A DNA stretch of 63,355 nt, filler included, from Kipferlia bialata (GCA_003568945.1; 4 parts of 4 records of this genome joined end to end with filler, not necessarily neighbours in it); one strand, 5' to 3'; positions 17,201 through 46,700 are shown, numbered from the whole stretch's first letter. Program-made: numbers and translations. The notes: generated from the letters alone by a model not told the origin.

Positions 17201-20200
17201 GCTACAGATCCCCGTACAATACTACGTGTCACGAACTGTACGGACACCCACCGCTGTTTCTGCATTTTGTGTTTTATGCCTCATCTAAACGCATCCTATA
17301 GTACTCTTAGACCTCTCACTCCAGATGAGATGACGTCTGATATCCTGCGGCAGGCCATGGAGTGGCAGTGTGAGGACCTCCCCCCAGCCCTCTACAACTA
17401 CCTGGTAAGTGAGTTGTCGAGTATATGACATGTACACTGTATTGGTACCCATGTCAAAGTCTTATTTTCCCTGTAACCTTCAGAAATGTCAATAGCAGGA
17501 GAGCATTAGGGCCACCAGATATGTGTATTTAGTAGTACACTATAGAGGTACAATGTAGCCCCACTAACACTAGGAGAGGGTCAGGGCCAGCCTCTGTGAC
17601 ACCATCCTAGCTAGACACGACTACTTCCTCGGACACTTCGACGTTAGAGAGGCAGAAGGTAACATTCGTGATAACATCACACCTAAGTTCCAGATTCACT
17701 GACATTAGAGTCATTTTCCGTGCCTGCTTTGACTCTGTGACACACACTCTTCCTCACCTCAGCCAGACTTCGTGCGAATGGGTACTTCAGCCTGATTGCC
17801 ACAAGTGAGGCCCTCAAGAGGCACAGAGATCACCTGCTGGTACGTGTGACACAATACTACATACTCCTGTGATATTCTGGTCCCATTATATATATACGGC
17901 GGTGAGTACTATCTCTCAAGTATGTAATAGTCGCTCTCGAGAAAGAGTCTCACTTCAGACTGCAGACTATGTGACACCCGTCCACAGTGCTATGGGCAAC
18001 AACCCAACCCACTCTGCCACTCAGAGTAAGGGCCGTACAGCCACCCAGTCACAGGTAATACTCAGACGTCTGAAAACTACACATGCTATCTCATGGACAT
18101 TACTGATATAGGACACAGGTAAGCTTAGTGCCTATTTACGCCCCACATACATAATGTTTTTGCTGGCCAGTCTTATACTCATGTTCTCTTCTCTTATCTC
18201 CAGAGAGGGGTCCCAGAGCACACTACTGTCCAGCCTACAGCCACCTTCCAGGAGGCAGAGAGTGAGACCACTGCCCCACCTCCTCAGGGCCCATACATAG
18301 ACCCCATCTTCCGCCAGGGGGGACCAGCTATGCAGGTCTGGTCTACACTGACCCCGGCAGAGAAGGTAGGCACATATATAGATGAAATGATGATGAATGT
18401 GTATATGAATGTGTATTTGTATTATAATATGAGTGTGTATACAATTGACTCGTTGGTACTGATGCTTTTACTGATACACGTTCTCACGTTAGGATAGAGA
18501 GCTTCAGATGATGGGGACAGCCCACATTGACGCATACAACAAGAACACTGAGTTGGCCTCCCAGGCTGCACCAAGAGGTTTGGATATTCCTCTGTACATC
18601 TCAGTATTTGTCACAGCAGTTCCCCGCAACACATGAGTAAATATGTTACGGTATAAGTATCGATAGTCTCATGGGGACTCTCACCCACAGACTACACGAC
18701 TCTGTATGCTCTCTATGAGAGTCAGAACTATCACCGTACAGTGTGTAGCTCCAGCAGGATTCCCATCCTCACGTCGGTATGTATGTGAATACAGTGTATA
18801 CTTTACACCATATGCTTGGATACTCCTACACACTGCTCTCACTGTCAGCTGCCTGAGCCTGAGGAGCCAGTTGCGATCCCACCCCCAAAGAATGAGAGCC
18901 AGGTCAGCATTCGGCAATATCTTGTTATTTGTGGCAATATGTGTTCAACTCCTGCCTCTGCTTACGGTGATATGTTCAGGTGTATTCTTCGTCTGTGACT
19001 CCTAACGATAGGAGCAGTTCATCCACCGTATCCGCAGTGCGGTTGCCGCTGGCACTGGTGTCGCCATGCACGAGTTGGTATGTGATATATATGTGTATGT
19101 GTATTTAAGAATAGTGTATATGGCAATACAATATATGCGTTGTGACAACTCCTTGTATGACAGCTACTAGCTGTCAGCTAGTCCTTGATCTCATTCCCAG
19201 AAGGAGGCTGTGCTTGTGATGGGTCCTGGCTATGACAGCAGTCTGCAGCAGACACATGCAGATGCTCAGGCTAGGCCTAAGCACTCCCAGGCAGCCCGGA
19301 CAAAGACTGTGGCTACTATGGCTCCTGTGCCCCGCCCTGTTGTCAGCAGGAGACACCAGCCAGCGGCTCAGCCTGCTAGGCAGCAGCCTGTCCAGGTGCA
19401 GAGTGTCACTGCCGTAGCTGTTACTGTACAGACGCAGGCTGAGAACACTGCTGCAGAGGAGGTCCTCGACTTCACAGAGGCAGTGCCTGCCCCAGCACCT
19501 GCAAGGTACCATTTGGAATGAGTCTCTTACATACGTTCTTGATACTCGTCCATGGTTGCTAATCCTAGAACCCAGACAGCTGCAGGACCTGCAAGAGGTG
19601 CATCCAGACAGAGAGCTGCCACTGTTTCATCAGGTATAGTAGTGGCAGTTGTGGCACTCTTCAAATCATACGGGAGTACTCTAACTGTACTTTGAGTACA
19701 TGCTAATTTGGCATGATGCTAACACCTCAGGGCGCCTTGGCGATATGATTGAGAAGCTTACTACCACCCGTGACTCACTTGTTACCGACTACATCCAGAA
19801 GTACCCAGGAGCCATCCCAGCTGCACACCTGACCAGAGGTGAGTGCTTCCTTCAATATGCTGATACCTTACAATGCATACCAAGCACTACCATTCAACAT
19901 CTCTGTGTCCTGACTCATCTAGGTGTGTACAGTAAGATGAAGTTGAGAGTCCAGAAGACCGAGAAGATCTGCGTTGATGCACATGACCTTGTGGATCGTG
20001 CACAGCCTGGCACAGTCAAGGAGGAGCTAGTTGAGCTTCTTGCGGAGGTGGTACGTCGAATGCTAGAAATCACCAATTATATGCGGATATATATATATAT
20101 ATATACGGGTGAGGAGTAGCAATCTATATATGAGTTCTGTGCGATACGGTTATATAGATATTCCAACTGCCAGGACGGTCACCGGATCCGACTCAAGGAG

Positions 20201-20493: not shown

Positions 20494-21379
20494 ACAGAAG
20501 TATGCCTTGAGAGCCACGGGTATCTATGTGTCCCTGTGGAGTGTTTTCTGTTGGGCACTGGGCAGTTGGATGCTGTGTGTCCCCACTCGAGTGAAGGACG
20601 GACTCTGAGTGAGAGAGAGCATCTAGATATGGTGCCTCTGTTGGCAGTAGTTGCTGCCTGAGTTTTGTGTTGGTATGATCGATGGGCCGATCCCAGTATA
20701 TAAATATCGTTGTTTTGCGACTTCCTGCTAGGTCACACTCAATACGTTTTCGGTACCATGCGCATACTGTATACTGTAATGAACTGCCGTACTGTAGAGA
20801 GAGGCAGTTGAGGGGGGTATGGTAGGGATGTCTACATACTGTATACTACAGTGACTGTAACAGCCGGTAGACCATCCACACTGTATACCCTCTACAGTTA
20901 CAAACCAAGACCATCACATATACAGTAGAGCCAGTGAAAGTACTACTGTATTCCTCTGTCTCTCTACCTTCAACTATCCACCTTGAAGTCTAAGGCTTGA
21001 ACGGTTACGGATATACATCTAAACCACTTTAGCCTACCGCCAGAGAAGAAATAGTTACTTGAGTGGTCTGATTGCTGTGTTGTGGATCAAGAGCTGCCCT
21101 CTTCTTCCCTTCTGCACAGGGCAGGTCTACACACGTTCTTGTCAAAAACTAGCTCTAGAGCAGTTGTATGGTGAGTGTCTGTCCGGCCTAGTGTGGTATT
21201 TAACGTCGACATACTTAAGTGTTGGGGTTGCCTCATATTGACTCTTATATCATTTTCACATAGTGTATACGGCAAGCTGAACCCGAGTTTACGATACAAT
21301 TTATAGTATTACTGGTACCAGATTTGCTGGGTATTTCCGTGTAACTAACACCACCTTTGATATCCTGACTGACATACCA

Positions 21380-24300: not shown

Positions 24301-25286
24301 AGCAGTCAGCCAGTGGCTCAGGCTGAGAGCCCACACCCTATCCCACTGGAGACTGCAGCTGCAGCGGCAGAGGAGGTCATAGACTTCACCCAGCCAGACC
24401 CTACCTCAGCACTTGCCAGGTACGACTATTGACGAGTACCATCTGTAGGTTCTTCACACTATAGTATCAGCTACAATGGTATAGTGACTATACCATTGTA
24501 GCTGATCCAAGGAGACAAGCAGCTGCAGATGCGTAAAGGAAGAGAGTTGCCAAAGACTTATCAGGTATATTTCAGGCAGCTGTGGTGTTCTTCAAATCAT
24601 ACGAGAGTAGACTGGAAGTGTACTGTGATTATGTAATGGCGAAGAGTCTATATACTGACACTTCAGACAGCCTTGGCCTTATGATTAAGAGGCTGTCCAC
24701 CTCCCGTGACCCACTGCTTACGGACTACATCGAGAAGTACCCACGAGGCATCCCCAAAGCACACCTGACCAGAGGTGAGTGCTTCCTTCAATATGCTGAT
24801 ACCTTACAATGTAGTCCAAACACTCCCATTCAACACCTCAGTGTCCTGACTCATCTAGGTGTGTACAGCGACATGCTGCTGAGAGTCAAGGAGACCAAGA
24901 AGATGTGCGTTGATGCCCGTGCCCTACTGGATCAGCTGCAGCCTAGCACAGAGAGGGAGGAGCTATCTGGTCTTGTCACCCAAGTGGTACGTACCATAGA
25001 CAAGATATCAAATTGTACATTACTATTGTATTGCTACTGCAGTATCCCATAGGAGTGGAAGCAAGTCTTCTTCAAGAGATATGTGCGTTCCGGTTCTATG
25101 GATCTTCCCACACCCAGCAGCGTCACGTGCCCAGACTCGAGGAGTTAGTTGTAGAATGCGACGCCGGCATCCCTAGGAGGGAGAAGAGACGTAAGTTAAC
25201 GACTATATATAAGCACGTTGGCTTCGGTTTTCTCTAGTGCTATATGTCTACCTAGGTTCTGCTCACATACAGAGCCCTCTTGGTGA
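21380..25286 (+). pseudogene. Multi-exon partial paralog of the preceding gene sharing its last 7-8 exons; in-frame TAA at 24534-24536 (truncated gene or pseudogene); 5' end uncertain
   Basis: Exons from about 23772-25286 align with 18850-20493 (IPPPKxExQ, EQxIxRIRSAVxAGTxVxMxEL, VMGPGYDSSLQQT, DYIxKYPxxIPxAHLTRG), as do some introns and the 3' flank. GCG TAA AGG aligns with GCA TCC AGA of the paralog. Confidence 0.45.
24466..24506. repeat. Perfect 20-bp inverted repeat with a 1-nt loop at the 3' end of an intron
   Basis: atcagctacaatggtatagt-g-actataccattgtagctgat. Confidence 0.9.
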
Positions 25287-26214
25287 TCAGAAGAAGCCCT
25301 TGAGAGACGGGTGTATCTATGGATCCCTGGCCCATGTACTCTGGGGAGTGCTATGTGTTTGGAACCTGAACAGTGGATTGTTTGGAGTCACGCTCCGAGT
25401 ACAAGATGGACTCTGAGTGAGAGAGAGTAATTTGATATGTTGCCACTCTTGGCAGTCATTGCTGTCTGAGTTGTATGTTGGTATGATCGATGGGTCGGTA
25501 CCAGAACATAAACATCATAGTTATGCGACGTCTGGCTATTACAGTGTCATACTCAGATTTCAATGTCGATATCAAACGCATACTGTACACTGTATGTGAC
25601 TGCGTTACTGTTGCGACAGACAGTTGAGTGGAGGTATATGTGGGTTGTCCTTTCATAGATTCCCAAAGCCGGAGACAATCTCGAAGCTGAACCTGTTGTA
25701 TAGAACCTGAAAACAGTATATTACTGACTGTCAGTAATTTACTGACAGACTCAAATATATTCTTTCGAACAACTCTCAAACATATACCAGATCACCCATA
25801 CTCCACTACACACCTGTGGTAGTCTCTGCCTCCTATCATAAATCCCTCACTCACCATATACACTCAATACGCTCCATGAACCGTACTCCATCTACAGCTT
25901 GCATGGTGTGACACCATGATGGTGCCCCATCTGTAGCCCGAGACACTCTGGGGGTGAGATAGAAGTGACACAGATATCCCATATCTATACGTCCATTACA
26001 ATGCCAAAGTTGTCAGGTACGACTACAACAAGAGACTCTTGTATTAAGAGTAGAAAGAAGCCTTCTCACATCCACAGTATAAACACTCAGTCAGATAAGT
26101 ATGTATCCATGATTTTTGTGTTATACCTCCGCTATGGGATACAGACCGTGAGAGTATCAGTGATACTGTGTCATATGTCACTGTTGTATGTACCTTTGTA
26201 GCAGTGAGTGGAAT

Positions 26215-27560
26215 TCAGTGTGCATCTGTAAACCTCTCAAACAGCTGTGGGTCTAGCTCCAGCACCAGTGTCCTTTCCTCCTGTAACACTAGCATAGTGG
26301 TGGGGTTGAGCATACACGCAGCCAAAACCTCATTTGGAAACGTTAGGGGCTCATGGAGAGTGTAGTCACCAGACACTTGGTCAAACATGTATACGCAGTG
26401 GGTCCTGACATCATCTGCTTCTGCGGTGTCTTGTGTCTCCCATCCAAACAGACATATGTAGGCGCCCATGTTGACCGCTACCTCAAAGCCAATGTGTATT
26501 GACCGGCCAGGAACAAGTGCTTTGTCAGTAAACACTCCATCTGTCAAAGAGGTTTGGCCCCGCAGCGACACTATCCTAGCAAGCGACTCCAAATGAGAGA
26601 GGTCCAATGGGTCAGAACCAAAGAATGTCCCAAGGGAGTTTCCAACGGTGCATATAGCCTTTTTGCAGCCAAACACCGAAGGATCCTCTGTGGGCCATTG
26701 CTGTTTCATGGACACTCTTCTCCAGGTCTCTCCGATGTCTACGTTGTGCATATCCAAACACCAGATATCAAGAGGGAAGCGGTATTGAGGTATAGGGTCA
26801 TTAGTTGGGTTCCCAACGTAGTAGAATCCCCCCAAAACCACAAGTGTCTCATCAACTACCACAGCGCTAAATCTGCGCCTTTGTAGGGGCCCGACAGAGT
26901 CTTGTGTGAACTCTAGGTGTCTGTGTAGCCCAGTGTCCGGGTAGAAGACGTACACGCCCAGTGGTGATGGTCTGTAGTCTCCGTCCTCTCTTGCATGCAT
27001 GCCAATCATTTCTAAATTGGACACCAGCACTGTCTGATTGACATCACTGACAAGAACTGGGATCACCATGGTGTCTGTGTCCACACTTAGTCCCAGTAAC
27101 TGTGCATGTTCAGTGATTGCAAGAGTGGTGGGGTCTACAGTGAACCTGGATTAGGGTTTGAACGAACATCTCTACCAAGAATTCAACGTACTACACGACA
27201 ATGTACACTATGATATTAACACTTTTACACAACATGACAGTGTTCAGAACCTACACGGGAAACAGATAGCTTCAACAACACACAGGAAGACTTCGGGTAA
27301 AGTGACTGTCATACCTCTCAACCCGGCCCTCAAGGTCAGCTGCAAGGATAGTGTTGTGGCAGAATGAGGCAACCGACACGTAACACTTTAACCTTCTACG
27401 CAGCTCTGCTGGGTTATCCAGCTGGATCTCTCTACAGCTGAGGTACCACTTCTTGGGTGTCATAGTGAAGAGTGGATGGGGCACAGAGGGGTTGTACTGT
27501 ATCTCTGGTAGGTATGTGTCGTATATGGTAGCTTGGACTCTGCTACTAGTGTAGTGTGTC
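26215..27560 (-). CDS. Divergent kelch-like beta-propeller protein; main exon includes 26215-27084, upstream exons approximate
   Basis: 289-aa ORF with kelch-type strands (AVVVDETLVVLGG, DIWCLDM..ETWRRV, GAYICLFG, VYMFDQVSGDY). A probable upstream exon lies at about 27372-27560. Confidence 0.6.
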
Positions 27561-28409
27561 TAAAGGGTGAGTGAAAGAGAGAGCAAACAGCGCCCAATAC
27601 GGTTAACATCTGTTGATACCCCAACGTAGAGACCTTCTTTCACAGAGAGAGAGGGTATGTAGTGACCTGAAGATACAGTACAGTAGACACGGGATCGAAT
27701 CTCCCATTGAGGCCTGCAACCTGAGAGGAATCACTGACTGAATAGGTATCTGTTCTCAGCGTGCCTATATGTGCGATTGCTGTTGATACTACCTGGTCCA
27801 GAAGAGATATACTATACGGATAAATGCGCCATACTATGGAAAATATCCCTCCTCTAACCATCGTACCCACATGTATCACAACACATCAGACTATTTATGG
27901 GATACCTCCACAGTGTGGAGTCCACACTCTCTAATGGAGACTCCTTATGCGTTACTAATATCACCGTTGCCCGTGTAACTTAGAGTCTCTAACTTAGAGT
28001 ACTTCCCATGAGTGCGATTATCGCACTGTGGGATACTCCTATCTGCATGAACTTGGGTTATGTACTCACTTTTGTATTGTAGAAATAGACTGTGCTCTTT
28101 CGGTTTCTAGGTGACACTGCTTGATGTAACGGTTATGGTGGATTCCTTACGCTAGTTGACCTCCCTTTCTTAAGTTCAGGATATAGTTACTATATCATTT
28201 AGTAGTATAAAGAATGAGCACTCCCGCAATGTAAAGTAGAACATATATCATGCTGCCCCGTTTTTCTCTATCAGAAAATCTGAACAATGCTATCGCTATC
28301 GGTATCAGACATCACACAACCAATAGATATTGACATATATATTACGACATCTCTCTCCCACAACCGAACCAGTCTCACACACTCCACCTATACACTTTCG
28401 CGGTATCAG

Positions 28410-28615
28410 AGACATACTTCCGCACCCCCACCCACCCAACCTGTCTACAGCGTCCACCCTATACTCAAGTCTCTGCATGTACCATCCACCTTCTACAGCT
28501 TGTGAGTTACAGGGACATACTTCCTCACCCCCTCCCAACCAATCTACACTGTAGACTAGCGTCCAACCTGCAATACTCCAATGTATGTCCACCCTCTACA
28601 GCTTGAATGGTGTCC
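28410..28615. repeat. Degenerate tandem duplication of about 100 bp (intergenic)
   Basis: gacatacttcc..cacccc..cccaacc..tctaca..agcgtcca..atactc..tccacc.tctacagcttg occurs twice. Confidence 0.6.
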
Positions 28616-28906
28616 CATGGGTAGCCCGAGACACACTTGGATGAGAGAGAAGTATATACAGATAAGTCCATAGTCATATACATATACGAGTAGAGAGACA
28701 CCTACATAGTATACACAATGGACTCGCCATCCGAGATAGACACAAACACCACACTGCATATACCAATATTCCCACACATACGTCTGTATACATTGAGAAA
28801 CACATTGTATTTAAACAATGTATATACTGAGAAGCTCAGCATCAATAGTAGTGAACACCAATGTGTATATACATCAATGTGATACTAGTACTATGCTTAC
28901 CTCCAC

Positions 28907-29582
28907 CTAGGTGTCCCCTGGCTCATCCGCCTGCCACCTGGGTATGAGAAGAGATTCTGTCAATACAGTAAAGCAGTCATATGGCACTCTCAGACACAAG
29001 CCGCAATAGGGAATACGAAGGAGTATATAGTTAAGGATATGGGTGATTACACAGTGAGGTCTACACTCACCCTGGCTCATGCCGCCCTGACACATCACTC
29101 TCTGTCTGCCTCTCACCCTCGTGAGAAGGCTGTCCAGTCTGTCCCTGGTGTCACCCTAGGGTGAGTGTAGGGCCATTGAAATAGAATATATATACATTAC
29201 ATAGATACACTACACCGTTATAGGAGGCTGTCCAGTCTGTCCCTGGTCACACACTGAGGTGAGCATAGGGTTAGTATATATATATATATATATATTAATA
29301 TACATATTAATTACACACAAACACTACACGAATATCGTGGTCTCACGCTGGGGTGAGTATAGGAGAATAAATATATGTATATACATATATATATATATAT
29401 ATATTCATATTACACAAGTACACTTCACCGCTATCCCTGGTCTCACATTGGAGTGAATATAGGGACAATGTATATATATACACTAATATATGTATATATA
29501 TATATTAATTACACAGATACACTATACCACTATCCCGGGTCTCACGCTGGGGTGAGTATAGGGCCAATATTTATATATATAT

Positions 29583-29615
<33 letters not shown>

Positions 29616-30951
29616 CATATTACATAGATACACTATACCACTATCCAGGGTCTCACGCTGGGGTGAGTATAAAGAGCACAGTGACACAAAACCCAATTGA
29701 TGACATGTATAGTAAGTGATACACATACACTATAACATACACTATCTACAGTATATACATGTACAATTCTATATGTACAATTGTATATATAATAATATAT
29801 GTATGTGTGTGTATCACTCACCAGCTGCTGAGCGTAGTCTCTGGCACCCTGGCCAAGGCGTGTCCCACAGAGGTGTGTGCCACTCCCACAGAGAGATAGA
29901 AGGTCCTCTAGCTGCTGGACCCACCCAGCAATGTAGACTGGGGGTGAGGTGTATACATATATATATATATATATATTAATTGTTGTATAATAGCATAATA
30001 GTATGGGTGTCGGTTAACTATATACATAATAATAGCACTCACCCTCAGTGCACTGCAGTGTGTCCACATCATAATGTATGTATCATAATGTATATATCAT
30101 AATGTATATAGTAGCACGGCTCACAGGTATGTATGTGTATGTATAATGCATATAGCATGAATTAGTATTAGTAACACCCTTACCCTCAGTGCACTGCACA
30201 GTGTCTATAGACCCAAGCTCCTGTAGGAGGACTCTCGTGTGTGTAGAATATATATATACATATATATATATATGTCACGACTACAAATTGTAGTACACAT
30301 ACCCTCAGTGCACTGCAGAGTGTCTATAGCATATTGCATTTAATATCACTTCCATGTTTGTAGAATATATATATAGTAGTTCGATGCTATATATATACAT
30401 CACACTCACCCTCAGTGCACTGTATGGTGTCTATAGACCCAAGCTCCTGTAGGAGGACCACTCTCTGCAGATAGTCTGGTATGTGTGAGAGGGACTGGAG
30501 GTGGGCGAGGCCGGCCTGTGCTCTGGCAGCCACTGGGGGTGAGAATAGTAATTATGTGTATAAATACTACACGCTATGTGTATATATATATATTCATATT
30601 AAGATTGACGAATCGTGACGCATGTATGTGTACATGTGTGTGAATCTATACACTATGTACAAGTGTGATAGAATGTATACTTACTACTCACCATATGAAT
30701 ACATACATACATATAGACATACATATATACATGCGTGTTGAAAAGCATGGTATGTACGAATTCATACACACTCACCGATGTCCTTCATGGTGGCAGGGTC
30801 AGAAGAGGGCCTGGAGTGAGTAACACATTACCCACATATATATACACACACAGGGTACACATGTACCTGTGAGAGGCAAGAGATTATGGAGCAAAGAGAG
30901 CGGTGTGGACACGATCATATACCACCGCTCCCATACAAGGAAAGCATTGTG

Positions 30952-30988
<37 letters not shown>

Positions 30989-32117
30989 ACATAAGTATGT
31001 AAAAGAGAAACAGTGGTATAGAGTGGTGGTGGTGCACATATGGTGTGTACATATATATATATATAGTATACCTGATGATATATAGAACTACATATATAGT
31101 ATATATATAGTATCTATACTTATATAGTATGGTATACCTGATGACAGGAGCAGGTAGTGCACATATGATAAAACATATATATAGTATAGTATACTGTATG
31201 ATATATATAACTACACATATAGTATATATATATAGTATATATACTTATATAATATACATAGAACATATATATAGTATACCTGATGACAGGAGCAGGGAGT
31301 GCAGTGTGTATCATGGCTCTGTACACCCTCCCAGTCCGTCTCACACTCTCTCTGGACGTTAAGACAGTGTGTAAACAGTGAATATACATAAAGACAAAGA
31401 TACATGTCTCACTGGTGGTTATAGTTTTCTCTCTCTCTGGTGTTAAGACAATGCATGTACAATGCCAGAACACAGAGACACACACAAAACATGTTTCACC
31501 GTTGGTTAGAAAACAATAATATATATATACATTATACATATACATACATACATTTATATATATATATACCCCACCTCCTCCTGGAGATTGGCCAGTATCA
31601 GTTTATCAGGTATATGTGTATATATATACATACATGTACATATATATGCCCCACCTCCTCCTGTAGATTGGTCCCCGAGTGGGAGTGGTGGGAGAGTGGG
31701 ATGGAATGACCACACTGCTGCGGAGTCGGGAGGAGCATGTCAGGTCTCTTCCTGATGTAAGACAACATTGTAGTAACTGGTCATGAATAAAACTAATGTA
31801 TTATACACACATGTATTATACACACGCCCCCTCACTGTCAAGTCTCTACCTTGGATAAGAAAGAAGTATATACTTATGAAGTGGTGGAGAGAGAGACCGG
31901 GATATAGAGAGAAACCAGATCGAGTTGTAAGGAGAAATCACCGTGACTGTTAATAGTGTTGTGCCTTACAAGAACAGCGGCTCTAGAACTGGTACCAACA
32001 CTGCAAGTATATATAGAGTATCACACTCATATATATAGTACCGTACCCCTTTCCACTCGCATGGCAAGTGCCTCCTCTGCCTTGGACAGACCAGTGCTGG
32101 AGTGAGATAGTGTTATC

Positions 32118-32152
<35 letters not shown>

Positions 32153-35100
32153 ATATATATATATATATCTGTGTTGAATGTAGCAAGTGCCTCCTCTGCC
32201 TTGGACAGGCCAGTGCTACAGTGAGATAGTGCATCTACATATATATACATACACATATATATATATAAACACACACACATATATATACACACACACACAT
32301 GTATATATATATATATATATGACAGGTATATATCAAGTGCTTACGCTGCCTTGGACAGGCCAGAGCTAGGGTAAGAAAGGTAATGTATATAGATACATAT
32401 ACATATATGTATATAGTGACACAACGTATACTTATGCATACATATACAGTGACATATATAAGTATTCGAATGTGGTATGTAATCAGTGTACTATTACTGG
32501 AGTCAGAGAGGATGTAACTACATACACTTACACTAGTATGTAGGAGTAATAATAGTACGGAGGTTATCATATGTCTGTACTGGAGTGAGCGCAAGTGGGA
32601 TGTATATATGTGTATATGTAAGGATTATGTCCAGTAAATAGACATGACAATAGGTGTCTATGTACCTCACTATGAAGCTGTGCTTCTGGGAGAAGAACCT
32701 CTGCGATTGGGGAGACCCCTTAGTAGGGGTGGACCTCTCTCTCTCCCTCACCATCTTGAAGCGGCCCATGGTGTCCTGAAGAGAGGGTGTACCCGGAGAG
32801 TACCTGTCGTCAGGTAGAACACATACTATTGTCATTATTACTATACACATATGTATACTGTATCATTATCAGTGTAATATGTATATGCGACAATGAAAGA
32901 GAGTGTACCGGAGAAATACCTATAGTTAGCACGAGGGTACAATGAGAGATATAGTAGTGGAGAAACATATATAGAGAGAGGGAGAGAGCGAGAGATGAGA
33001 CGTACATGGGAAGTCACGGTATCTAGAGATATGTATCTGAATGTAGTGGTAACATGTGATTGGGGAAGAGAGTTGGATGAATTAGGCAGCTACACACAGA
33101 CACACACAGACACACATATATACATATATACTATATCATACATGGTAAGGAACATATGTATATATGGTATTGGGCTACACGTAGTCATGTACATATATAT
33201 ATAGTGGTACCTAGCCATTGTCTGACTGATCACAGACACTCACACACACACATATATATATACTATATCATGAAAAGTAAGGAACAACTCTATATATGGT
33301 ATTGAGCGTCAAGTAACATAGTAGTGTATATATATATAGAGAGAGTGATACCTGGCCATTGTCTGACTGATGGTCTCCACTGTCTCTCTCCCCCTCTCTC
33401 TGCCCCTCTCTCTCCCTCTCACTTCCACATAACGAACAGGGGGAAAACTGCATGTTAATATGGTGAAAACAGAGACGTAGTGGCGAGGGTATAACTGTAT
33501 GATAGTATGTGTAAAGACAGACATACCAACAGGAGAACATGCAAGAGACGATAGTACAGGAGATACAACGGGATATTGATATATTGCATAGCCTGGAGTG
33601 AAACAGACAGAGAGAGAGATATATCTGTCAACGATTGCTAAGTAAGAGCATACATATACTGTATCCCCCTGGTATATAAGGAGAGAACTTATATGATAGA
33701 GAAGCAACACCTCGACGTAGCATATATATATATATATATATGTATATAATTACATATATATTGCTCCCTCGTACATATAGCAGAGAGAGCCGGAAGATGA
33801 GGAAGGCAGAGAATATTAGATAGACAGCTGTACCTGAGATCTCCCTGTGAGCGCAAAATCTCTGTATCCCTCTTGTACTGTGCCATCACTTCCCGCCCTA
33901 TTGCAATGACATCGCCGTGGGACAGCCTTCGCTTCATGGGGAATCCTGGGGAATCCTGGGGAATCCTGGGGAATCCTGGGGACAGCCTTCTCTTCCCGGG
34001 GGACACGACTGTCGGCGTCTCTCTCCTTGACTGACCTGACGTTAGACATTAATATATACATATAGATATATGTATATAGATACGGGCATGTACATGTTGT
34101 GTGGATATGTATATACATAAATATATATATATATATATATATATGTCGGATGTATATACATGACTGTTGGTGTCTCTCTCCTTGCACCTGACGTCAGATA
34201 CACCTGTGTAGCATCTACACATATATCCTAGTTACACATATGAATGTATATACAAATGGGACAAATATGTATAGCAGGAACTTCCATGTTCAGATACACA
34301 CAACGTGAGTACACACATCTCCCCACCTGGTGGCTGCTTCCCGGTGCCTGTCAGGGTAGAAGGGGTCTCATTGAGCCTGAGAGTCAGTCGGAGTAGGGGG
34401 GGGTACGCTACACGAGGAGATACATAGGGAGAGGGAGATGGAGAGAGTGTCTGGGTAACGGGGGCGGAGGGGGGCGGAGGGGGGGGGGGGGGGGGGAAAA
34501 AAGGGAAAAAAAGAAAAAAAAAAAAAAGAGGGGGGGGGGGGGGGGGAAACAATCTTCTTGTAGACCCTAGCATGAGTATACAGCAGTATCTATATAGTAT
34601 TCAAAATAGCAGTATACTATATACATATATACTAAACATTATAACTATGAGTATGCATACTGATATACCTTAATTTTGAAGTACTGTATGTACATCTGGG
34701 ATACATATTGTATATATACTGATACCACTATGTTCTATGCTATATATATATAGTGTATATATATAGTATATATAGTATATATAGTATATATACTATCTGC
34801 TATACCTTGTGAAGCACTGTGTGTACATCTGGGGCTGTCTGACCTTGACCATGGCTAGCAGGGTGCCTGTAATTAGAGAGAGAGAGAGAGAGAGGGAGGG
34901 AGAGAGAGAAAGGTATGCCTTGAACATGGCTAGCAGGGTGCCTGGGGTGAAATATATACATACACACTCACACTCACACATATGAATATAAATATATACG
35001 GAGACAGAGAGAGAGGGAGAGAGATGCCTTGACCATGGCTAGAAGGGTGCCCAATGAGAGAGAGAGAGAGAGAGAGAGGAAGAGGTCAAGAGATGGTACG

Positions 35101-35965
35101 AGCATATATAATAATATACCCAAATGCATAGAGTAGATATCCATGCATATGCATACCTAGCTCGTGCATGTGGTATGATCACACACACACATATGTATAT
35201 ATAGGAGATATCCATGTATATGCATACCTAGCTCGTGCATGTGGTGCGAGCCAATATATATACACACATATATTATTAGAGTAGATATCCATGTATATCC
35301 GTACCTAGCTCGTGCATGTGGTGGGGGGCTGCCTCCATGTCACACAGACACCTGAGGGTGAGGGGTAGACAATAGATATGTGTATATATATATATATATA
35401 TACATATAGATTGATAGATAGGTAGATACTACCACTGGTACTATACAGCCTCCATGTCACACAGACACCTGGGGGTGAGGGGCAGACAATAGATTAATTA
35501 TAATACAACGAATATATGCGTGTACTACTACTAGTACCCTACCTATCAACGAGGTCGTCTGACTGCACAGCACAGCAGAAAGAGTATACAAATATATATA
35601 AATATATATGAATACATATATACTATATATACTATAGTATAGTATACTATGTATGTACTCCTATCAATCAGGTAGTCTATCATCTGCCGTGACTGCACTG
35701 CCATGCACAGCACATATACATATATATATACATACATATATACAATACTATATATATAATGTATGGTATATGATACATACCTATCTATGAGGTCATCGAT
35801 CATCTGCCGTGACTGCACTGCCATGCACAGCACAGCAGACAGGGAACGCCTTGAACGGCCTGGCTATGAGGGGAAGACACACACACACACACGCATATAA
35901 AAATATATATGGATAGACACTGACAGGGAACGGCGGGAACGGCCTGGATATGAGGGGGATATATG

Positions 35966-35996
<31 letters not shown>

Positions 35997-37162
35997 ATGT
36001 ATGTATAGGTACTGATACAGACAGGGAGCGGCGGGAGCGGCCTGGATATGAGGGGAAGATGTATATATAAATGCATAGATACTGACAGGGAACGGCGGGA
36101 GCGGCCTGGAGGTGAGAAGCAGAAGTAGATAGATAGATATATATGTATATATATATATATGAATCAGTATGTATCAGTATGTGTATCAGTATGTATTTAT
36201 ATATACCTGACGCTGTACTTAGGGCAGATGACATGGCCCCCAGGATGTGCTTCTCCCAACATATATACACTATTACACTATATAGTATATTTATATAATA
36301 AGTATATATATATATATAATAAATATATAATAGGTATATATCCACCTGATGCAGTACTTAGGGCAGATGGCATGGCCCCCAGGATGTGCTTCTCACCCAT
36401 ATATATATATATATATATATCCATATATACACTATAATATATATATATATATATATTACCACTATGAGTATATCTATATATCACTATACCTGACGCTGTG
36501 CTCAATGCCGATGGCATGGCCCCCAGGATGTGCTTCTCCCCCACATCCCGCCTGACCTTCTGGGCAGAGGACAGGAACACAACCTGGGGTTAGAAACATA
36601 CATATATGCATATATATATGTAATATTGTTAACACTGATGTAATATTTTAGAGTGTTGATCGAAAGTAGTGAATCTGGGCAGAGGACAGAAACACAACCA
36701 AGAGGGTAAGATACACATTAGGGTATTTATATGTATACATATGCATATGTATACAAGTATATATGACTCCAAGTATATATGCATTGATGGCATTTGGACA
36801 GAGGACAGAAACACAACCTGGAGACTGGTATACCTGGAGTTAGGTAGATGTACATACATTATCTGATATGACAACACAAGCATATACGCATGTAAAGCAC
36901 TTGGACAGAGGACAATACAACCACCCATACCTTCTCTGCCTTGCCGAGTGTCCTCTTGCACTTGGAGTGGTACCGTCTATCTATATATATATCTATATAT
37001 ATCTGTATACATATATATATATATATATATGTATGTATCTATACACACCTTCTCTGCCTTGCCGAGTGTCCTCTTGCACTTGGAGTGCAGCAGAATGACG
37101 TTGTCGTTGTCCCGCTGGGCATCAGTACAGAGAGACTAGTATATATGCATACACTAGACTTG

Positions 37163-37199
<37 letters not shown>

Positions 37200-38868
37200 G
37201 TAGCAGGATGACACTGTCACTATTACTACCTGCAGTGCCTGGTTGCACTATACAATATATATATAAATATATGTATCTACCTGCAGTGCCTGGTTGTCCT
37301 ATATAATATATATATATATATATATACATGTACATATATATATTTGTATCTACCTGCAGTGCCTGGTTGTCTGGGTCCAGCTTGGCTGCGGCATCCAGCT
37401 GGATGAGGACATGGGACGTGGCCTGGGTGAGTATATACATGTACAGGGAGAGGGGGGGGAGGAGAGAGAGAGAGAGAGAGAGAGAGAGGATCAGGACATG
37501 GGAGGTGTCTTGGGTCAGAGTACAAAATACATACAAGAAAGTAAGAGAGACAGATGGTGTTGATATACTATACTGATACAGACACATACATATATATGCA
37601 TTCACATACGTTGATTGCCCTGTGGAGGTGTCCGAATATCAGTGTATATACCTCAGACTATATAGTATATATATATCTATATATCTATATAATAGTATGC
37701 ATTCACATACGTTGATTGCCCTGTGGAGGTGCCCGAATATCCTTCTGACACTCAGCTGGTCTAGACAGAAGTATATATGTATATATATATACATACATAT
37801 ATAAACTATTACTTACATTGATAGCCCTGTGCAGGTGTCCGAATATCCTTCTGACACTCAGCTGGTCTGGGAGGGAAGAGGGGAACAGGGTCTTCTTCTT
37901 GAGAGGGGACTGGAGGTGAGTCATATAGTCAATGGTTATACTCAATATAATAGTCAATTACATATTATCACTTAATACCAGTTCTTCTTGCGAGGGGGTG
38001 AGACATAGCCAATAGATTCATTCATATTCATAATGCCATACAATGCATACATGCTCACATGTCAATAGATATCTCTATACACATCCCACCTCCCCAGCCA
38101 CTGTGTCCAGGCCAGACAATCCATCTCTCTCTGTCTCTATATATATATATGTGTATATGTAGTAATGTATCTATATACATATACCTCCCCAGCCACTGTG
38201 TCCAGGCCAGACAGACACTCGGTCAGAGCGAGGAAGGCACTCAGGATCCTAGAGGGTTAGGAGACGTATATTTATACATGTACCACTATATATATATATA
38301 TATATATATGATGTACTATAGACATATATATGCTGTGTCAGAGCAAGGAAGGCACTCAGGATCCTAGAGGGTGAGGGTGAGGGTGAAGGAATATTAATGT
38401 ATATAAATACTTATGTAATATACCTTGCCACTAGTTTGTGTGTAGGCAGCTATTCTACTATACACATTATATACCTAGCCACCAGTCTATGTGTGGGTAG
38501 TTCCTTGGCCATCTCCACCAGTGCCAGGATGACTGGGAGGAGGGTGACATCGGTGTTCTTGGTGTGGAGGAGGCATACAGTGGCCCTGAAGACAGCCCTA
38601 GAGTTTAGGTATATGCTAGTATATACTAGTATATATATATAGAGAGAGCTAGAGAGAGAGAGACTGGTACATGAGGCATACAGTGGCCCCGAACTGCTCT
38701 GGGGGGCATGGTACGCAATAGTACACTAATAGTATACACACATATATATACATATACTATACCTACTGCTCTTTGCCAGCCTGGGTATGTCCATGACATC
38801 TGACTGGGGCATCACATTGCCCCTCATCTTACCAAAGCACACCACAAACTGGGTGCGAAACCTAGGTC

Positions 38869-38900
<32 letters not shown>

Positions 38901-38942
38901 CACACCACAAACTGGGTAGGGAACCTGATAGTAAGCGTGTAG

Positions 38943-38984
<42 letters not shown>

Positions 38985-39420
38985 CTCAGACTGATGTCCA
39001 CCACATCTGGGTCGTATGAGTGACTAGTATGCAGATTATAAATATATAAGTATATATTTATATACACAGGTTAATAATACCTTCTAGTACACTATTGTCA
39101 TATATTATATGTATATAAGTATATATACCTGAGACTGATGTCCACCACATCTGGGTCGTATGAGTGACTGGCATGCAGAATGCAGTTCTGGATACGGATC
39201 ATGTCGTTCCATCCCATGCGCCTCTGGAGGATCAGTATCAGTATATATATATATACAGTTATCATTAGTATAAGTATATATGTATACATATCGGTGCGAC
39301 TACTGCACACACTGGCCTAGACTCTCCATAAATGTGATTCACTACAAACCTGCTCTAGCAGTATCTCTGGTGTGGATGGGTTCTCCAGCAATGCCTTGAC
39401 ACACTCAAAGTAGTATGCAC
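28907..39420 (-). CDS. Multi-exon hypothetical protein (about 20 exons of 35-190 bp, 5'-partial) with long introns filled with microsatellites and exon-edge copies
   Basis: Full exons splice in frame: AYYFECVKALLENPSTPEILLEQ|RRMGWNDMIRIQNCILHASHSYDPDVVDISLR|FRTQFVVCFGKMRGNVMPQSDVMDIPRLAKSSR|AVFRATVCLLHTKNTDVTLLPVILALVEMAKELPTHRLVAR|ILSAFLALTECLSGLDTVAGE|SPLKKKTLFPSSLPDQLSVRRIFGHLHRAIN|ATSHVLIQLDAAAKLDPDNQALQ|SLCTDAQRDNDNVILLHSKCKRTLGKAEK|VVFLSSAQKVRRDVGEKHILGAMPSALSTASG and onward. The phases of the 3' exons are less certain. Confidence 0.7.
29125..39035 (-). repeat. Arrays of intronic partial copies of adjacent exon termini (with splice site), separated by (TA)n/(GA)n/(CA)n-rich spacers
   Basis: Counts include the full exon: ccctcagtgcactg x4 (30037-30422), caagtgc..ctgccttggacag x3 (32084-32360), cctagctcgtgcatgtggt x3 (35156-35322), catggcccccaggatgtgcttctc x3 (36232-36538), cctgcagtgcctggttg x3 (37229-37369), ttgat.gccctgtg.aggtg x3 (37611-37837). 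Confidence 0.9.
33941..33980. repeat. 10-bp tandem repeat (gaatcctggg)x4 inside a predicted exon
   Basis: Four perfect units flanked by the direct repeat gggacagccttc. Confidence 0.9.
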
Positions 39421-40669: not shown

Positions 40670-43494
40670 ATGAGGAGTCTGCGGAGGAGTCCACAATGCT
40701 CCTGGACGAGGAGGAGGCCAAGTGAGTAGCATACACTACTATATACAATATACTATATACTGTACTATACATACTATACATACAATGCTCCTGGACGAGG
40801 AGGAGGTGTCTGTCTCTCTCTCTGTATACCCCTCACTATCTCTTCTTTATATGCTGAGTCCACTGTGTCTTCCTCTCATACTCTCTGCAGAGAGTTACAC
40901 ATGCAGAGATGAAGTTCTTTCGTATCCCCCCCCCCCCCCCCCCCCCCACCCCCCCCCCCTTTTTTTTCTCCCCCCCCCCCCCCCCCCCCCCCCCTCTCTC
41001 TCTCTCTACCCATACACATATATAGCTTCCTATATTCATCCCACCCCCAGCCATGTCCATGTCCATGTCCCTGTCTGTGCTGCTCTCTCTCTCTCTCTCT
41101 CTATCTCTCTCTATTATTATACATATACATCTACACACACCCCAGCCATGTCCCTGTCTGTCCTGCTCTACCTGACCCTGAGCCTCACAGCCATATACAA
41201 CAACATGGTGGTGTCCATACAGACATGGGAGGACTTCTATGCATACATGGTCCCAAGTGCAGGTACCTAGCTAGTGTGTGAGGGGTGTTTGTTGCTGCAG
41301 AATGGAGATACTCACTCTGTCTGTACAGTGCTCTATTCCATATAGTTACTGTATCATACATGGTGCGCAGGGCAGGTACAGAGTGTGTGGAGATGTATCA
41401 TAATGTGACTGGCATTGTATAGTATTTCGTTGTATTAGTACATACCTCTATAACATGATTCTGATACTGACACATACTTCTGTATTATACTCTTCAGAGT
41501 TTGCCGTTCTGCTCATTCTCCTCCTCCCAGTATAACCTACGTCTGTGCTAAGCTGACTCGATACATATGAATACTGACATTGGAGTCACCTGCCGTGTAT
41601 GTCCATATACTGGAGTCTAATACATAAGTATGGCATTTCAGACTGACCTTAGCTGTTGCTGCCAACTATTAATACCCACTCTGTATATTCGCTCTGCTGT
41701 CCACTGAAACCTGCTTCATATATACTATATCCCTCCACTGACCCCAGCCGTAGTGGCTGCCAACTGGGCCTCCCACACCCTGGAGACAGTGGTGCTGACA
41801 CTGGTGTATGTGCAGGTGGGTGGCATACTGCGCAATTATATATATAATGTCTGGTGTTCGTAATAATAGTTGACGGCTGAGCTCTGTAAGGGTGGAGACA
41901 AAGCCTGTATACTATGAATAGAGGACGTAGCATAAGTGAAGAAGAAGTACCTGGATTTGTGTGCATGTGGGTGTACATATACATATTGCACCCCCCACCC
42001 CCAGGTGTTCAGAGGTGTCATCAGACCTCAGACATTCAGAAGGGTCCACAGAATATGCGTGGGGGTTGGGGTACTGTTAGGTAAGAGGGTGTATATTGAT
42101 TAGTATGGAATGATGCAAATTCAGCCACTACTAGTCACGTCTTCTATCCCCCTCCTCCACTCCGTCTACTCTTCCCCCAGCCTGCCTTCTAGTGGCAGTG
42201 CATATCACAGACACAGTCTATACCAGGGCACTGTACGCCAAGGGGATAGACTACCTGGTGAACACAGGGTATGTATGTATGAATAGGTGTATGTACACAT
42301 AGAGTTATGACAATATGCGTTTTATTGGGAAGTCTGTTACCTTCTTTTATAGAAATACTAACTAGAATCGTGCTATGTAACATGAAATTGAGTAGTTATA
42401 TGCCTCACCCGCAGAATCACTGAGTACATCCGTGAGAGGGAGTATGTGACCCAGGCCTACCTCTGTCTAGACCTGTGTGCCATAGTACTGATGACACTGG
42501 TGGTGGTGGCACTGGCATACATGCGGAAGGTGCACACTGTGAGCGTATATACAGAGAAATATTTACCTGTATGGTGCATGACAGATGGCACCAATGTACG
42601 GGGAGGAAGGCTGTGTATGAGAGTCCAGTCGGGACAGCTATTTGTCCCGGTTACGGGTGTCACTAATTCTCTTGTTGTAATTATCTAGCGTTGCGCTATT
42701 GGTCTCTCTCACCTTCAGGCCGTCAGCGGTGCCTCTTCGAACATCAAGAGCAGCCAGCACAACACAAGGAGAGAGATTAAGAAGATTGACGTGCTGCCAG
42801 TGGTGTATCTACTGGATGCCCTGTCGATGTCAGTGTTATGGGTGGTGACACAGGTGTATCTATATATGTATATATATATATATAGAGAGAGAGAGGTATG
42901 TACATGCTCTGGGTGGTGACACAGGATGTGTTTATATATGTATATATATATATATATATAGAGAGAGAGGTATGTACATGCTCTGGGTGGTGACACAGGT
43001 GTATATGTATGTATATATGTATGTATGTACATGGGTGTGTATAGTGGTTACGTATAGACTGACACATATGCCACTGTTGTCAACCCATGCCTCTAACTGA
43101 CAGAGCTACAATGGTGACATGTCCAAATGGCAGGCATCGTACACAAAGTGAGTGAGTGAATCAGTGACTCAATGTGGTGTGTGCTGATAAGGAACCAAAC
43201 TCAGCTTATTGCGCTGCACATAGCAAAGCGGTATCCTTTACCCCCAGGCTCACCTTCATCTTTGCCTCTACCATGGGGTGTGTCTGTCTCTGCACTGTCC
43301 TGTACCCAGCCTCCCAGGGCAGGAAGGGGAGGGGACCAGCAAAGTATGCACCAGCTAGAGGTATTCATGTGGTTATCTATTTGTATTCTTTTGTACCTAC
43401 TTGACACTTTGTGTACATAGCCTTGCAAGCTACTGATCACCCTAGAAGCACAGAGACACTTCCATCATGGCAACACCATCAACGGAATGACTGA
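40670..43494 (+). CDS. Multi-exon multi-pass membrane protein (start uncertain)
   Basis: Spliced exons give several hydrophobic helices: SLSVLLYLTLSLTAIY, RVHRICVGVGVLL, AYLCLDLCAIVLMTLVVVALAYMRK, VLPVVYLLDALSMSVLWVVTQ and LTFIFASTMGCVCLCTVLYP. The terminal exon ends in TGA at 43494. Confidence 0.55.
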
Positions 43495-43715: not shown

Positions 43716-46700
43716 TCATATCAACTTGATACCCTGGTACACCATGAATACCACCAAGTATGGCATCATTCTTCCAGCGTTGGTTTCCCGTATCTGCACT
43801 GTATATGTGACTGGGACGTATGGCTGGTCCCACCTGTCCTGCTCCGTCATCATAACATAGACAGAGTCCCCGTTCTCATTGGAGGCCAGGTTGATCAAGT
43901 GTGAGACTGTACTCTGGTATTCAGGCATAGAAGTTTACGTTCGTACTATGAACAACCGACAATTAGACACCGTAGTCCCTACCTCTTTCTCGCCCTGGTG
44001 ATACTCCCCACTAAGGGTGTTGTAGTGTGCAATGGGGGTAATTCCGTGGGACTTGTACCTACGTGCCGATGCACACCAGGGTATGTGCTCTGGCACCACA
44101 GTCTCCCCCTCCACCACCTCTACTGGCCAGTATGGCCCATACTGTATGGGGAGTAACCACTGAGGAACCCAGTGGGTTCTGAGACTATGACCTCAGTTGA
44201 CTCAGGTGCAGCACCAACCTTGCCGTCACCACTTATATGCCGTGGAGACTCAGTGACCCACTGACCCGAGAGGGAAAGAGAGCAGTGGTGGAAGTCTCTC
44301 TCCCTTGTGCTGTAGAATACATGGAGGGTGTCCCCTATCAGCACACTGCCACGGGTATCACTCCGACCCCAGGGGTGGTCGGGCCACCGCATCCACTCCT
44401 AGTGCATCAGTACATACATGAATGGATCAATGGCATCAGTACATACATGAATGGATCATTCGTCTACATACTACAAGCAAACATATCCAATATATAAACA
44501 ACACTTATTACCAGCGCATCCACTCCTGAGACATCAGTGTATAGTGTGTACTACACACACACATATATGTATACTCATACATAACAAGTATGTCAAGCCA
44601 TATCGTACCAATGCAACAATTCCAGTTGGAATGGTGAGTATGGTACCGATGAGATATGAGTGTACACCAGGTGTGATAATACACCATGAAGTCGCCATGG
44701 TGTTCTAGACAGATAACACCCATATGTTCATACGTACAAACGTGTGATTTACCTTCTCCTCTGTGTCGTATGCCCAGGTGTGGTGCTGCTCCGTTGTCAC
44801 AACTAGGTACCCCGGGAGGCGGTTCAGATCAATTTTGGTGTTGTAACCTTTGTTATCGATGATGTCCGGTACAAAAGAGGCACTCCACTCCCTCGACCCA
44901 GTGTCTAGAACGTGTAGAGTAGTTCGGGACTGATGTGGGCAGTGCAGGATGTACACATGGCTGTAGTCACTTGTGCACTTCACGTATGGGTGGGGGTACC
45001 CCCTCTGGGTGGCTGATGCCTCAGGTATGGTAGGGGCACCTGGCAAGCGTTCGACAGTGAGCCCCAACACGCTATCGGTGGCGATACAGTCAGACACTCT
45101 GGTGCACACGTACCAGTGCTCATCGATGAGGACCAGTGTCTCTGCAGCGGTCATAGGACATGACATCCATATGTCACCAGAGGGTAGGTTGTGAGGCCTC
45201 TCGTGATATTCCAACTGCAGGTGGGGGGCACTTGTGAGTAGTGGTAGTCTTTGTAAGTTGCGTAGTGGATGAGACTTAGCGACCCTGTGGCCCTGTGGAG
45301 CTCTTGCTGCCTGACACACAATCGTCTGTATGGACTTTGGACATGTGTGGTCTAATAGCACCCTTGTCACAGAGAGTGTGTTACAACAGTGTAGAAGGGG
45401 CAACATGTGGTGGAGATTCAATGCAGTGATGTTCACTCCCCTCAGGTCAAGGCCTCCCCCGTATCTAGCTCTCAAGTCATCACCTGGAAGACACTCACAG
45501 AGAGTCTGGATGTTGTCAACAGTGACTGACTCAAGCCCCACTGCTATCTTACAGAGACATGCCAGAAGACTTGATGGATCTATAGCAGGCGGGGGAACAT
45601 GTGCAAGTGATGCCTCCCGTCCATCGTCTCCTAGGTGTTGGACACTGGCCACGTCACTTAGGGGTACAGATGGTGCAGGTACTCTGTTTAGGACAGATAG
45701 TGGGTGGAGACCCCCGGTGAGACTACCCAAGAGGTGAGGTAGAGGGGTAGTGGGGTCAGAGGTCAGTAGCATTCTGGCTGCCTTCGCACACATATACACT
45801 AACCAGGGGGCAGACAGTTGGTACCTCTCGAAGGCCCTTAGCACACAGTCACTTAGAGGAGAGCCTGGACACTCTGCTGCAACAAGGAGTAGCTGAATAG
45901 GGGTACTCGAGTGCTGGTAGGACCTTGCATCCACTAAGTACCGACCAGTAGCCTCCTCTATGGTGGCCACTGTTCTCTGCAGGTGACTGAGGATGTAACT
46001 CTGGTGGTTGGGCAGCCCCTGATACAGCTTGTACAACTCCATGCTGTAGAGTCGGCAACAGTACAGGCTGCTCACGACGGTCTCCAGAGTAGACTCGATG
46101 ACACCTGCCAGCAGACTGTGTGTCTGGGGGTACATGCACAAGACCTCGCGTGTCTGTGAGAGAGATGCCTGGGGCCTTCCATGCTCTGCCTCATGCGATG
46201 GTATCCCGTGCCTATCAGAGGCCGACACCAGTATGTCAAGCAGGTCTAACAGAGTGGACGCACAGGACACTGTCGACCCCTCCAAGAGTGTGTGAACTGC
46301 ATGTGTCACACGTGACAGGCCTAGACTGCACAGACTGAGCATAACGGGTATGAGTAGCCTTTGCGGCTCTTCAGAGCTCAGTATCTGCCCCACAACATGT
46401 ACAGCAGCTTCCATCGGGGATGTATGGGTCAGATTACAGATGCCGGACAGAGTCTGAGTGGAACGCAGGTGCTGGACGCATAGGAAGTGAGAGAGACGGA
46501 CAGTGATGTCGTACTCGTTGGTGTATGCAGTAGTGACCATAGCACTGCGTGGCCCTGTCTGCTGGCACAGCAGAAACTGATGACAAAGATGCGAGCCAAC
46601 GGTGTCTTCTGACACTCTGTAGTACAAGCCCGTGCCGGTGTGATACCTCACAAGGGGGCAAGAGCCAAAGAGTCCAAACATATAGATCCAGTCCCCTGCC

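Follow-up and report, generated by a model that had tools for sequence, protein, structure and literature searches.

The DNA analysed here, a window of 63,355 nucleotides (nt), consists of four contigs of Kipferlia bialata joined by N-linkers. K. bialata is a free-living fornicate for which 124,912 GT-AG introns have been reported (PMC5874029). Our subject is a gene on the minus strand that takes up the last part of the second contig, where the window is at its most TA-rich, and whose exon ends recur, together with their splice sites, as short copies in the neighbouring introns. We call these copies echoes. The host gene, as modelled, has 25 exons that run from 39420 to 28596 in an open frame and are separated by GT-AG introns of 126-666 nt; its 5´ end is cut off by the end of the contig (Table 1). 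Spliced RNA confirms exon 4 and shows it joined to exons 3 and 5; the remaining exons are modelled only. The interior of exon 13 (about 34460-34550), which consists of homopolymer runs of G, A and C and is probably a sequencing or joining fault, was omitted from the model. From exon 4 onward the RNA contig described below measures 3056 nt versus 2027 nt in the model, and thus exons or untranslated sequence are missing from the latter.

A scan that was anchored at splice sites, blind to codon position and subject to an ungapped threshold identified 37 echoes at 26 of the 48 exon ends of the host gene, every one on the expected side, with copies of an exon's 3´ end behind it and copies of its 5´ end ahead of it. 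The same threshold was reached in 6 of 2257 scans of non-adjacent or reverse-strand sequence and in 1 of 47 wrong-side scans, the single wrong-side match being the 5´ echo of exon 11 read through. Both the presence of splice-site-bearing copies and their strict polarity, as claimed in the initial annotation of this DNA, are borne out, and the peptides given there as examples (LHRAIN, LPTHRLVAR and MIDDLIDR) agree with the alignments from the anchored scan. The further claim, that most introns carry 3´ echoes followed by 5´ echoes, is correct for the order, which holds in all introns with both kinds of echo, but not for the frequency, since these are only 8 of 24 introns; 18 of 24 carry an echo of any kind.

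Echoes are 16-57 nt long, with a nearest unit of 51-155 nt, and the scored ones make up 1083 of the 8533 intron bases. There are one to three scored copies per end, separated by diverged spacers, and not the many near-identical units of a minisatellite. Of the 20 donor echoes, 18 retain the GT, and of the 17 acceptor echoes, 11 retain the AG, the other six lacking it as aligned; a branch-point-like motif together with AG is found in 6 of the 17. Donor echoes mostly end in AG before the GT, an arrangement also found in recursive splice sites, but they have exon-like sequence upstream, and the arrays of exons 6 and 21 do not end in AG. Signs of decay include a stop codon, indels and loss of AG, and further decayed echoes, with indels and a stop, fall below the ungapped threshold. 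At 35128-35323 (exon 11) and 33090-33351 (exon 15), tandem units can be aligned throughout, including their intron part, and these are the clearest in-place duplications.

Exons and echoes differ mainly at silent sites. Among all 37 echoes, differences at codon positions 1, 2 and 3 number 22/364, 16/361 and 66/358, respectively, and for echo versus exon in this one gene the differing proportions of silent (pS) and replacement (pN) sites are 0.25 and 0.05, with a ratio of replacement to silent divergence (dN/dS) of 0.17-0.20. The earlier impression that the differences are mostly at third positions or conservative is therefore upheld. Among 334 codons in the model frame, 54 changed silently and 29 by replacement, compared with 6 and 75 in one wrong frame and 7 and 71 in the other; random placement with the same substitution spectrum gave a silent share of 0.25, with a maximum of 0.40 in 2000 runs. 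Pure neutral decay is nevertheless too easy a null, because a plain duplication leaves the exon, too, free to drift at silent sites, and a share of about 0.40 is then predicted. With the nearest echo taken at each of the 26 ends, 35 of 57 changed codons are silent (p 0.0009 against 0.40), and when an exon drifting silently was simulated alongside a decaying echo, the silent share was 0.38-0.44 and the observed share of 0.61 was reached in just 6 of 900 simulations. The initial proposal that echoes have a largely coding history thus passes the fairer null as well as neutral decay. Two readings follow: exon and echo alike were constrained as coding sequence over most of their separate history, or exon ends mutate several-fold faster than echoes. 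Five of the 37 echoes are mis-registered by indels; these remained in the silent-share tests, including the nearest-echo count, and were left out of the counts that follow on gradient, flanks and arrays with several echoes.

The third-position differences are crowded at the splice site. In successive bins within 24 nt of it they amount to 21/87, 19/84 and 13/67 (19-24%), and beyond 24 nt to 2/35, 0/17 and 2/26 (0-8%). When one long echo was taken per end, at six ends, 17 of 48 third positions differed in the terminal 24 nt versus 2 of 47 further in (p 0.0002). The ends are also over-dispersed (chi-squared 46.8, 20 degrees of freedom, p 0.0006): at the eight terminal third positions, 4 of 21 ends differ at four to six and 7 differ at none, as would be expected if young copies made in cis are mixed with distant donors. 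In nine arrays with several echoes, the sites at which the exon differs from all of its echoes are silent in 13 of 14 cases, and the sites peculiar to an echo are mixed, with 6 of 14 being replacements. Exon 21 has Ile where its three 3´ echoes have Leu, Val and Leu, and the flank is different in each echo. The exonic part of echoes (identity 0.93 for donors and 0.91 for acceptors) is far better preserved than their intronic flank, whose identity to the corresponding real flank is 0.51 and 0.57, respectively, over a background of 0.34. By gapped score, 7 of 32 echo flanks are clearly related to the real flank, and many are too diverged to call.

Two runs from one sample were compared with the host-gene stretch: X1, a public DNA run, and X2, which is RNA as shown by its spliced contig and not by its record. 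The 3760-nt contig from X2 matches exon 4 without other letters, with the letters of exon 3 before it and the real exon 5 after it. In the intron between exons 4 and 5, the inner echo donor and the inner echo acceptor are both skipped and the outer pair is used, which, for this one intron, suggests exon definition. The spliceosome of K. bialata has been described as reduced, with 87 of 174 searched proteins (PMC6679479). A joint at 38362-38474 was considered as use of an echo acceptor and rejected, as the real exon 5 lay outside the stretch examined; the piece in question is one letter off the echo, and its loose end continues into the real exon 5.

We favour an explanation in which exon ends were overwritten from a diverged donor, as this accounts at once for the identical inner parts, the silent outer parts, the flanks particular to each echo and the mixture of identical and distant ends. 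Such a history would start with in-place duplication, the presumed cause of the observed layout, of a unit spanning one splice site (exon end, GT and intron start, or intron end, AG and exon start). The polarity requires no special mechanism, because only duplications that leave one whole exon survive selection: duplication across a donor puts the fragment after the whole exon, and duplication across an acceptor puts it before. Splicing would then take the sites that bound the whole exon, as it does at the one intron seen in RNA and presumably does elsewhere, and the echoes would persist as neutral decoys that slowly decay. A later break in a TA-rich spacer could be resected to the nearest good homology, either the exon end or a long echo, and the resected end could invade a diverged homologue, acquiring donor letters at its tip and copying some of the donor intron. 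The new letters would be mostly silent because the donor was coding, and the inner part of the exon would stay identical because it was copied in cis. Among the explanations considered, a conversion step of this kind is the likeliest, and we put at about even odds that the silent divergence arose when break repair overwrote the last ~24 bases of exon ends from a diverged allele or gene copy.

Several observations from other systems bear on such repair. In yeast break-induced replication, donor mismatches are reported to be incorporated in a polar fashion up to ~40 nt from the invading end (PMC9477423), a reach that resembles the 24-nt zone seen here; the assay is a Rad51-dependent one in yeast and not in a fornicate. 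Metamonads are reported to be without Ku, and all examined fornicates to have lost Rad51A while retaining two Dmc1 proteins (PMC8516963); Dmc1 is reported to stabilise mismatched joints (PMC6719624). The window itself contains a likely precedent for transfer. Two tandem paralogues on the plus strand share an 84-nt intron that is 92% identical, with 16 and 10 identical adjoining exon bases, whereas four other intron pairs are 36-68% identical, and we read this, from the sequence, as a likely ectopic conversion tract. In each paralogue the 84-nt intron could be read through in frame without a stop, so that intron retention is a rival reading of its conservation. An exon-end gradient in the paralogue pair, in which some exon pairs are mis-called, was not significant (37/126 versus 11/53, p 0.27).

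A number of our own results weigh against overwriting by a donor. Recombination or gene conversion, which was among the routes named in the initial annotation, is also the route we prefer, with the reservation that protein and metagenome searches with single exons, which are weak tests, turned up no donor, whether allele, related lineage or paralogue; the exon 4 of the RNA contig shows no other letters either, and contigs drop variants. Donors would have to differ at about one in three third positions, a depth of divergence unusual among alleles. The link between flank divergence and silent divergence is weak (rho -0.27, p 0.14, n 32), and flank divergence would be a poor clock in any case, as TA-rich flanks may turn over fast by slippage. 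The number of echoes in an intron rises with its share of repeats (rho 0.48, p 0.018), but dinucleotide repeats are no more frequent at echo junctions than in other spacer DNA (p 0.71), so that microhomology of microsatellites at the junction, and with it the earlier idea of microsatellite-assisted duplication, is not supported. By a hand count, the echoes of other genes differ from their exons by five silent and five replacement codons, as also fits plain duplication. The statistics on which we rely all come from the host gene alone, and the echoes of one array are not independent.

If tandem duplication in place were the only process, each echo would decay neutrally, and the working exon end would have to gain silent changes faster, as it might if error-prone repair were directed to splice junctions in use. 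Many echoes do show few or no differences and have related flanks (exons 7, 11 and 15), the changes found only in the exon exceed those of each echo and are nearly all silent, and the even split in other genes fits as well; moreover, two routes have been proposed to the diversity of exon ends at mobile introns, and one of them is mutagenic repair (10.1101/092585). With equal rates, however, the simulated silent share falls well short of that observed, and by our arithmetic the exon would need about 4-8 times the mutation rate of an echo 100 bases away, even though spacers flank the echo on both sides. Sites changed only in the echo are also silent more often than the 0.25 expected (7-8 of 14). 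On balance we find this explanation improbable. We rate as more unlikely still that echoes are spare exon ends maintained by selection, such that exon and echo anneal to close a break in the spacer, the spacer is lost, the echo becomes the exon end, and echoes bearing replacements are purged. The low dN/dS, the retention of GT in nearly all donor echoes and the conservative nature of changes such as Ile/Leu/Val and Arg/Lys are all consistent with this, and single-strand annealing is reported to be available in metamonads (PMC8516963). Yet decayed echoes are common, the 24-nt gradient is not predicted, and swapping within a lineage should keep dN/dS at or above ~0.5 unless drop-out is frequent, in which case echoes would be deleted before they diverge. 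For the same reason the initial picture of a reservoir of interchangeable exon termini can be retained only in part, as exon-echo swapping within one lineage would not by itself yield a dN/dS below ~0.5, and the idea needs alleles or direct selection.

Use of the echoes in RNA, as alternative, recursive or switched splice sites whose letters reach the mRNA, would agree with the many echoes that have full splice signals and with the content of X2, in which 0.10 of the sampled words are present against 0.13-0.15 predicted from the exon model. That gap could be explained by errors in the exon model or by the junk stretch, and the contig from X2 has the real letters of exons 4 and 5 with no piece on the exon-4 echo. 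Furthermore, splicing at an echo would extend the exon in an open frame at only 4 of the 37 sites, and six echo acceptors have no AG as aligned. The unrecognised RNA-processing route entertained in the initial annotation is thus not supported at the one junction tested, where real sites and real letters are used, and we regard RNA use as very improbable. Ciliate pointer-type DNA elimination was considered and dropped, as the spliced RNA fits ordinary introns. Least of all do we believe that the arrays are artefacts in which haplotypes or paralogues were collapsed into false tandem copies. The homopolymer junk in exon 13 and the ~1 kb by which the RNA contig exceeds the model past exon 4 do indicate that the assembly is imperfect here. 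On the other hand, echoes show graded decay, and joins of a spacer to the middle of an exon should occur in neither haplotype, so that a collapsed bubble could not produce them. In addition, when 1038 31-letter words were sampled from the stretch, 0.95 of them were present in X1, and words crossing the inner junctions of echoes make up 7.7% of the stretch's words. The word content of X1 counts against invented junctions, and it is support from reads at best, as X1 may be the window's own source and would then not be independent.

No description of this architecture was known to the initial annotation, but the layout belongs to a known kind. In human F7 intron 7, a variable number of 37-bp tandem repeats spans the exon-intron boundary, and CBS intron 13, 6-16 intron 2, LMNB2 and PDGF are listed as further cases; the pseudo-sites are silent, and the most upstream donor is used, by oriented scanning (PMC1557585). 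The host gene is similar in that the repeated unit crosses the exon-intron boundary, placing copies of the splice site in the intron, and in that, at the exon 4-5 intron, the pseudo-sites are silent and the outermost real donor is used. It differs in that the F7 kind, as that source presents it, concerns a single locus with 5-25 copies of one donor-side unit, whereas here more than half of the ends of one gene are involved, on donor and acceptor sides, with one to three copies that each take in 16-57 exon bases, with spacers that have diverged, and with differences that are silent and polar.

Mobile self-splicing introns of fungal mitochondria offer a second comparison. The exons beside them show gradients of single-nucleotide polymorphisms, put down either to co-conversion from donors outside the population or to mutagenic repair (10.1101/092585), and the same fork applies to the gradient in the host gene. 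Differences there, as here, are mostly silent and lie close to the intron (~20 nt there, 24 nt here). Those introns, however, are of group I or II and have endonucleases, unlike the GT-AG introns studied here; our comparison is between exon and echo inside one sequence; and the part of that paper considered here found no comparable gradient at the spliceosomal introns of yeast nuclear genes and mentions no former exon end left within an intron. For gene-wide, two-sided echoes with silent polar divergence, a literature search in any species, which covered mainly open-access texts without supplements, returned no account. Mutually exclusive duplicated exons likewise place paralogous coding copies with silent differences in introns, as whole exons with both splice sites. 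Echoes, in contrast, are fragments with one end and cannot be spliced in as exons. What is new, in our view, is the crowding of third-position differences in the terminal 24 nt together with the silent changes found only in the exon.

If repair from diverged donors is the correct explanation, a single assembly records conversion tracts, their lengths and the divergence of their donors at dozens of splice sites, homologous repair in a Dmc1 lineage reported to be without Rad51 or Ku becomes directly measurable, and a route to intron growth is provided. A broader and tentative idea, which we are inclined to doubt, is that, without Ku and Rad51, spliceosomal introns and ~24 flanking exon bases are cassettes exchanged between deeply diverged alleles. 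Echoes would then be the scars of exchange and its landing sites, refreshed from working alleles and able to regain coding use, and the introns of a haplotype would store allelic diversity. Whatever their origin, the echoes of the exon 4-5 intron show a reduced spliceosome skipping an intact-looking inner donor and acceptor, and echoes are natural decoys for testing exon definition as well as a trap for gene prediction.

Table 1. Exons of the host gene, echoes, and related features elsewhere in the window (window positions; echoes of the host gene are those at the named exon end)
Feature	Strand	Span	Single copies	Remarks
Exon 1	-	39420-39350		
Exon 2	-	39223-39129		
Exon 3	-	38861-38763		
Exon 4	-	38597-38475		
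Exon 5	-	38248-38185		
Exon 6	-	37909-37817		
Exon 7	-	37422-37354		
Exon 8	-	37114-37049		
Exon 9	-	36583-36490		
Exon 10	-	35859-35781		
Exon 11	-	35351-35305		
Exon 12	-	34866-34806		
Exon 13	-	34566-34327		junk interior
Exon 14	-	34035-33834		
Exon 15	-	33447-33352		
Exon 16	-	32803-32666		
Exon 17	-	32096-32047		
Exon 18	-	31751-31655		
Exon 19	-	31351-31280		
Exon 20	-	30810-30776		
Exon 21	-	30532-30410		
Exon 22	-	29937-29822		
Exon 23	-	29155-29071		
Exon 24	-	28937-28901		
Exon 25	-	28635-28596		
Exon 2, 3´ echo	-	38985..39035		51 nt, GT present; anchored scan
Exon 3, 5´ echo	-	38899..38924		anchored scan
Exon 4, 5´ echo	-	38673..38700		mis-registered through an indel
Exon 4, 3´ echo	-	38424..38449		26 nt, with 5 of 6 differences silent; not covered by any RNA piece
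Exon 5, 5´ echo	-	38337..38363		acceptor looks intact; RNA has the real exon-5 letter
Exon 5, 3´ echo	-	38090..38118		29 nt, identical
Exon 6, 5´ echo	-	37982..37998		decayed
Exon 6, two 3´ echoes	-	37610..37762	37762-37711, 37640-37610	7 of 7 differences silent
Exon 7, 5´ echo	-	37488..37509		
Exon 7, two 3´ echoes	-	37230..37298	37298-37281, 37245-37230	identical
Exon 8, 3´ echo	-	36931..36969		39/39 identical, intron flank differs
Exon 9, 5´ echoes	-	36674..36921	36817-36795, 36698-36674, 36921-36902	36921-36902 decayed
Exon 9, 3´ echo	-	36207..36402	36402-36346	8 silent, 1 replacement
Exon 9, 3´ echo	-	36207..36402	36257-36207	5 silent, 1 replacement
Exon 10, three 5´ echoes	-	35922..36105	36105-36084, 36041-36018, 35943-35922	no amino-acid differences from exon
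Exon 10, 3´ echoes	-	35545..35714	35714-35661	GT lost; a further, internally deleted copy
Exon 11, 5´ echo	-	35448..35468		identical
Exon 11, two 3´ echoes	-	35157..35246		identical, closely related intron flanks (young tandem units)
Exon 12, two 5´ echoes	-	34918..35050		
Exon 12, 3´ echo	-	34673..34700		decayed, three replacements
Exon 14, 5´ echo	-	34158..34190		3-nt offset
Exon 15, 3´ echo	-	33211..33230		heads a tandem unit of ~140 nt
Exon 17, two 5´ echoes	-	32183..32365		stop codon in far copy
Exon 18, 3´ echo	-	31575..31591		
Exon 19, 3´ echo	-	31138..31161		
Exon 21, three 3´ echoes	-	30043..30329	30329-30303, 30232-30184, 30064-30043	
Exon 23, 5´ echoes	-	29222..29665	29253-29222	four more decayed tandem copies upstream
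Echo in other gene	+	11829-11857		
Echo in other gene	+	40782-40806		
Echo in other gene	+	41052-41080		
Echo in other gene	+	41355-41375		
Echo in other gene	+	42899-42998		
Echo in other gene	+	59964-59981		
Echo in other gene	+	60042-60180		
Echo in other gene	+	60380-60420		
Tandem paralogue	+	18205-20520		exons 68-80% identical to the next (5 exon pairs)
Tandem paralogue	+	~23390-25300		
Shared 84-nt intron with short exon flanks	+	19823..19932	intron 19839-19922	
Same, in the paralogue	+	24759-24868	intron 24775-24858	

The identity of the host gene was sought with parts of it. A Pfam search with five exons returned no family, homologue searches with exons 4 and 14 singly found none, and an atlas search with exon 4 gave no usable match; single exons make weak tests. 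Three matches to exon 21 among representative sequences were rejected as chance, as all are repeat-rich proteins scored over several stretches, and a 42% metagenome match to exon 14 was rejected because it lies in GC-rich DNA without the structure of the host gene. Exon 14 contains four copies of a 10-nt unit (33939-33978); should the real number of copies be another, the frame of the model would shift. Behind the stop codon lies a diverged repeat of ~100 nt (28407-28605), and 25919-25976 matches 28607-28664 (58 nt, 81%), overlapping the modelled last exon.

In other genes, on three contigs, echo-like copies occur with the same polarity at much lower density, one of them with a 1-nt insertion. 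A many-intron gene at ~48300-57700 on the minus strand, with ABC-transporter-like motifs read by eye, had no echo in the window-wide scan, and echo density therefore varies strongly among genes. Long open reading frames without introns are present at 26215-27150 (minus strand), 44705-47266 (minus strand) and 61888-62697 (plus strand); by eye they have the look of beta-propellers, which we take to be Kelch-like. No open reading frame of at least 200 amino acids lies within the echo stretch. The first contig, GC-rich and intron-poor, encodes a PPi-type PEP carboxykinase (PF26300) at ~1938-5158 on the plus strand, which is 100% identical over its length to a Kipferlia bialata protein and for which the best non-Kipferlia matches listed, at 44-47%, are bacterial or unnamed.

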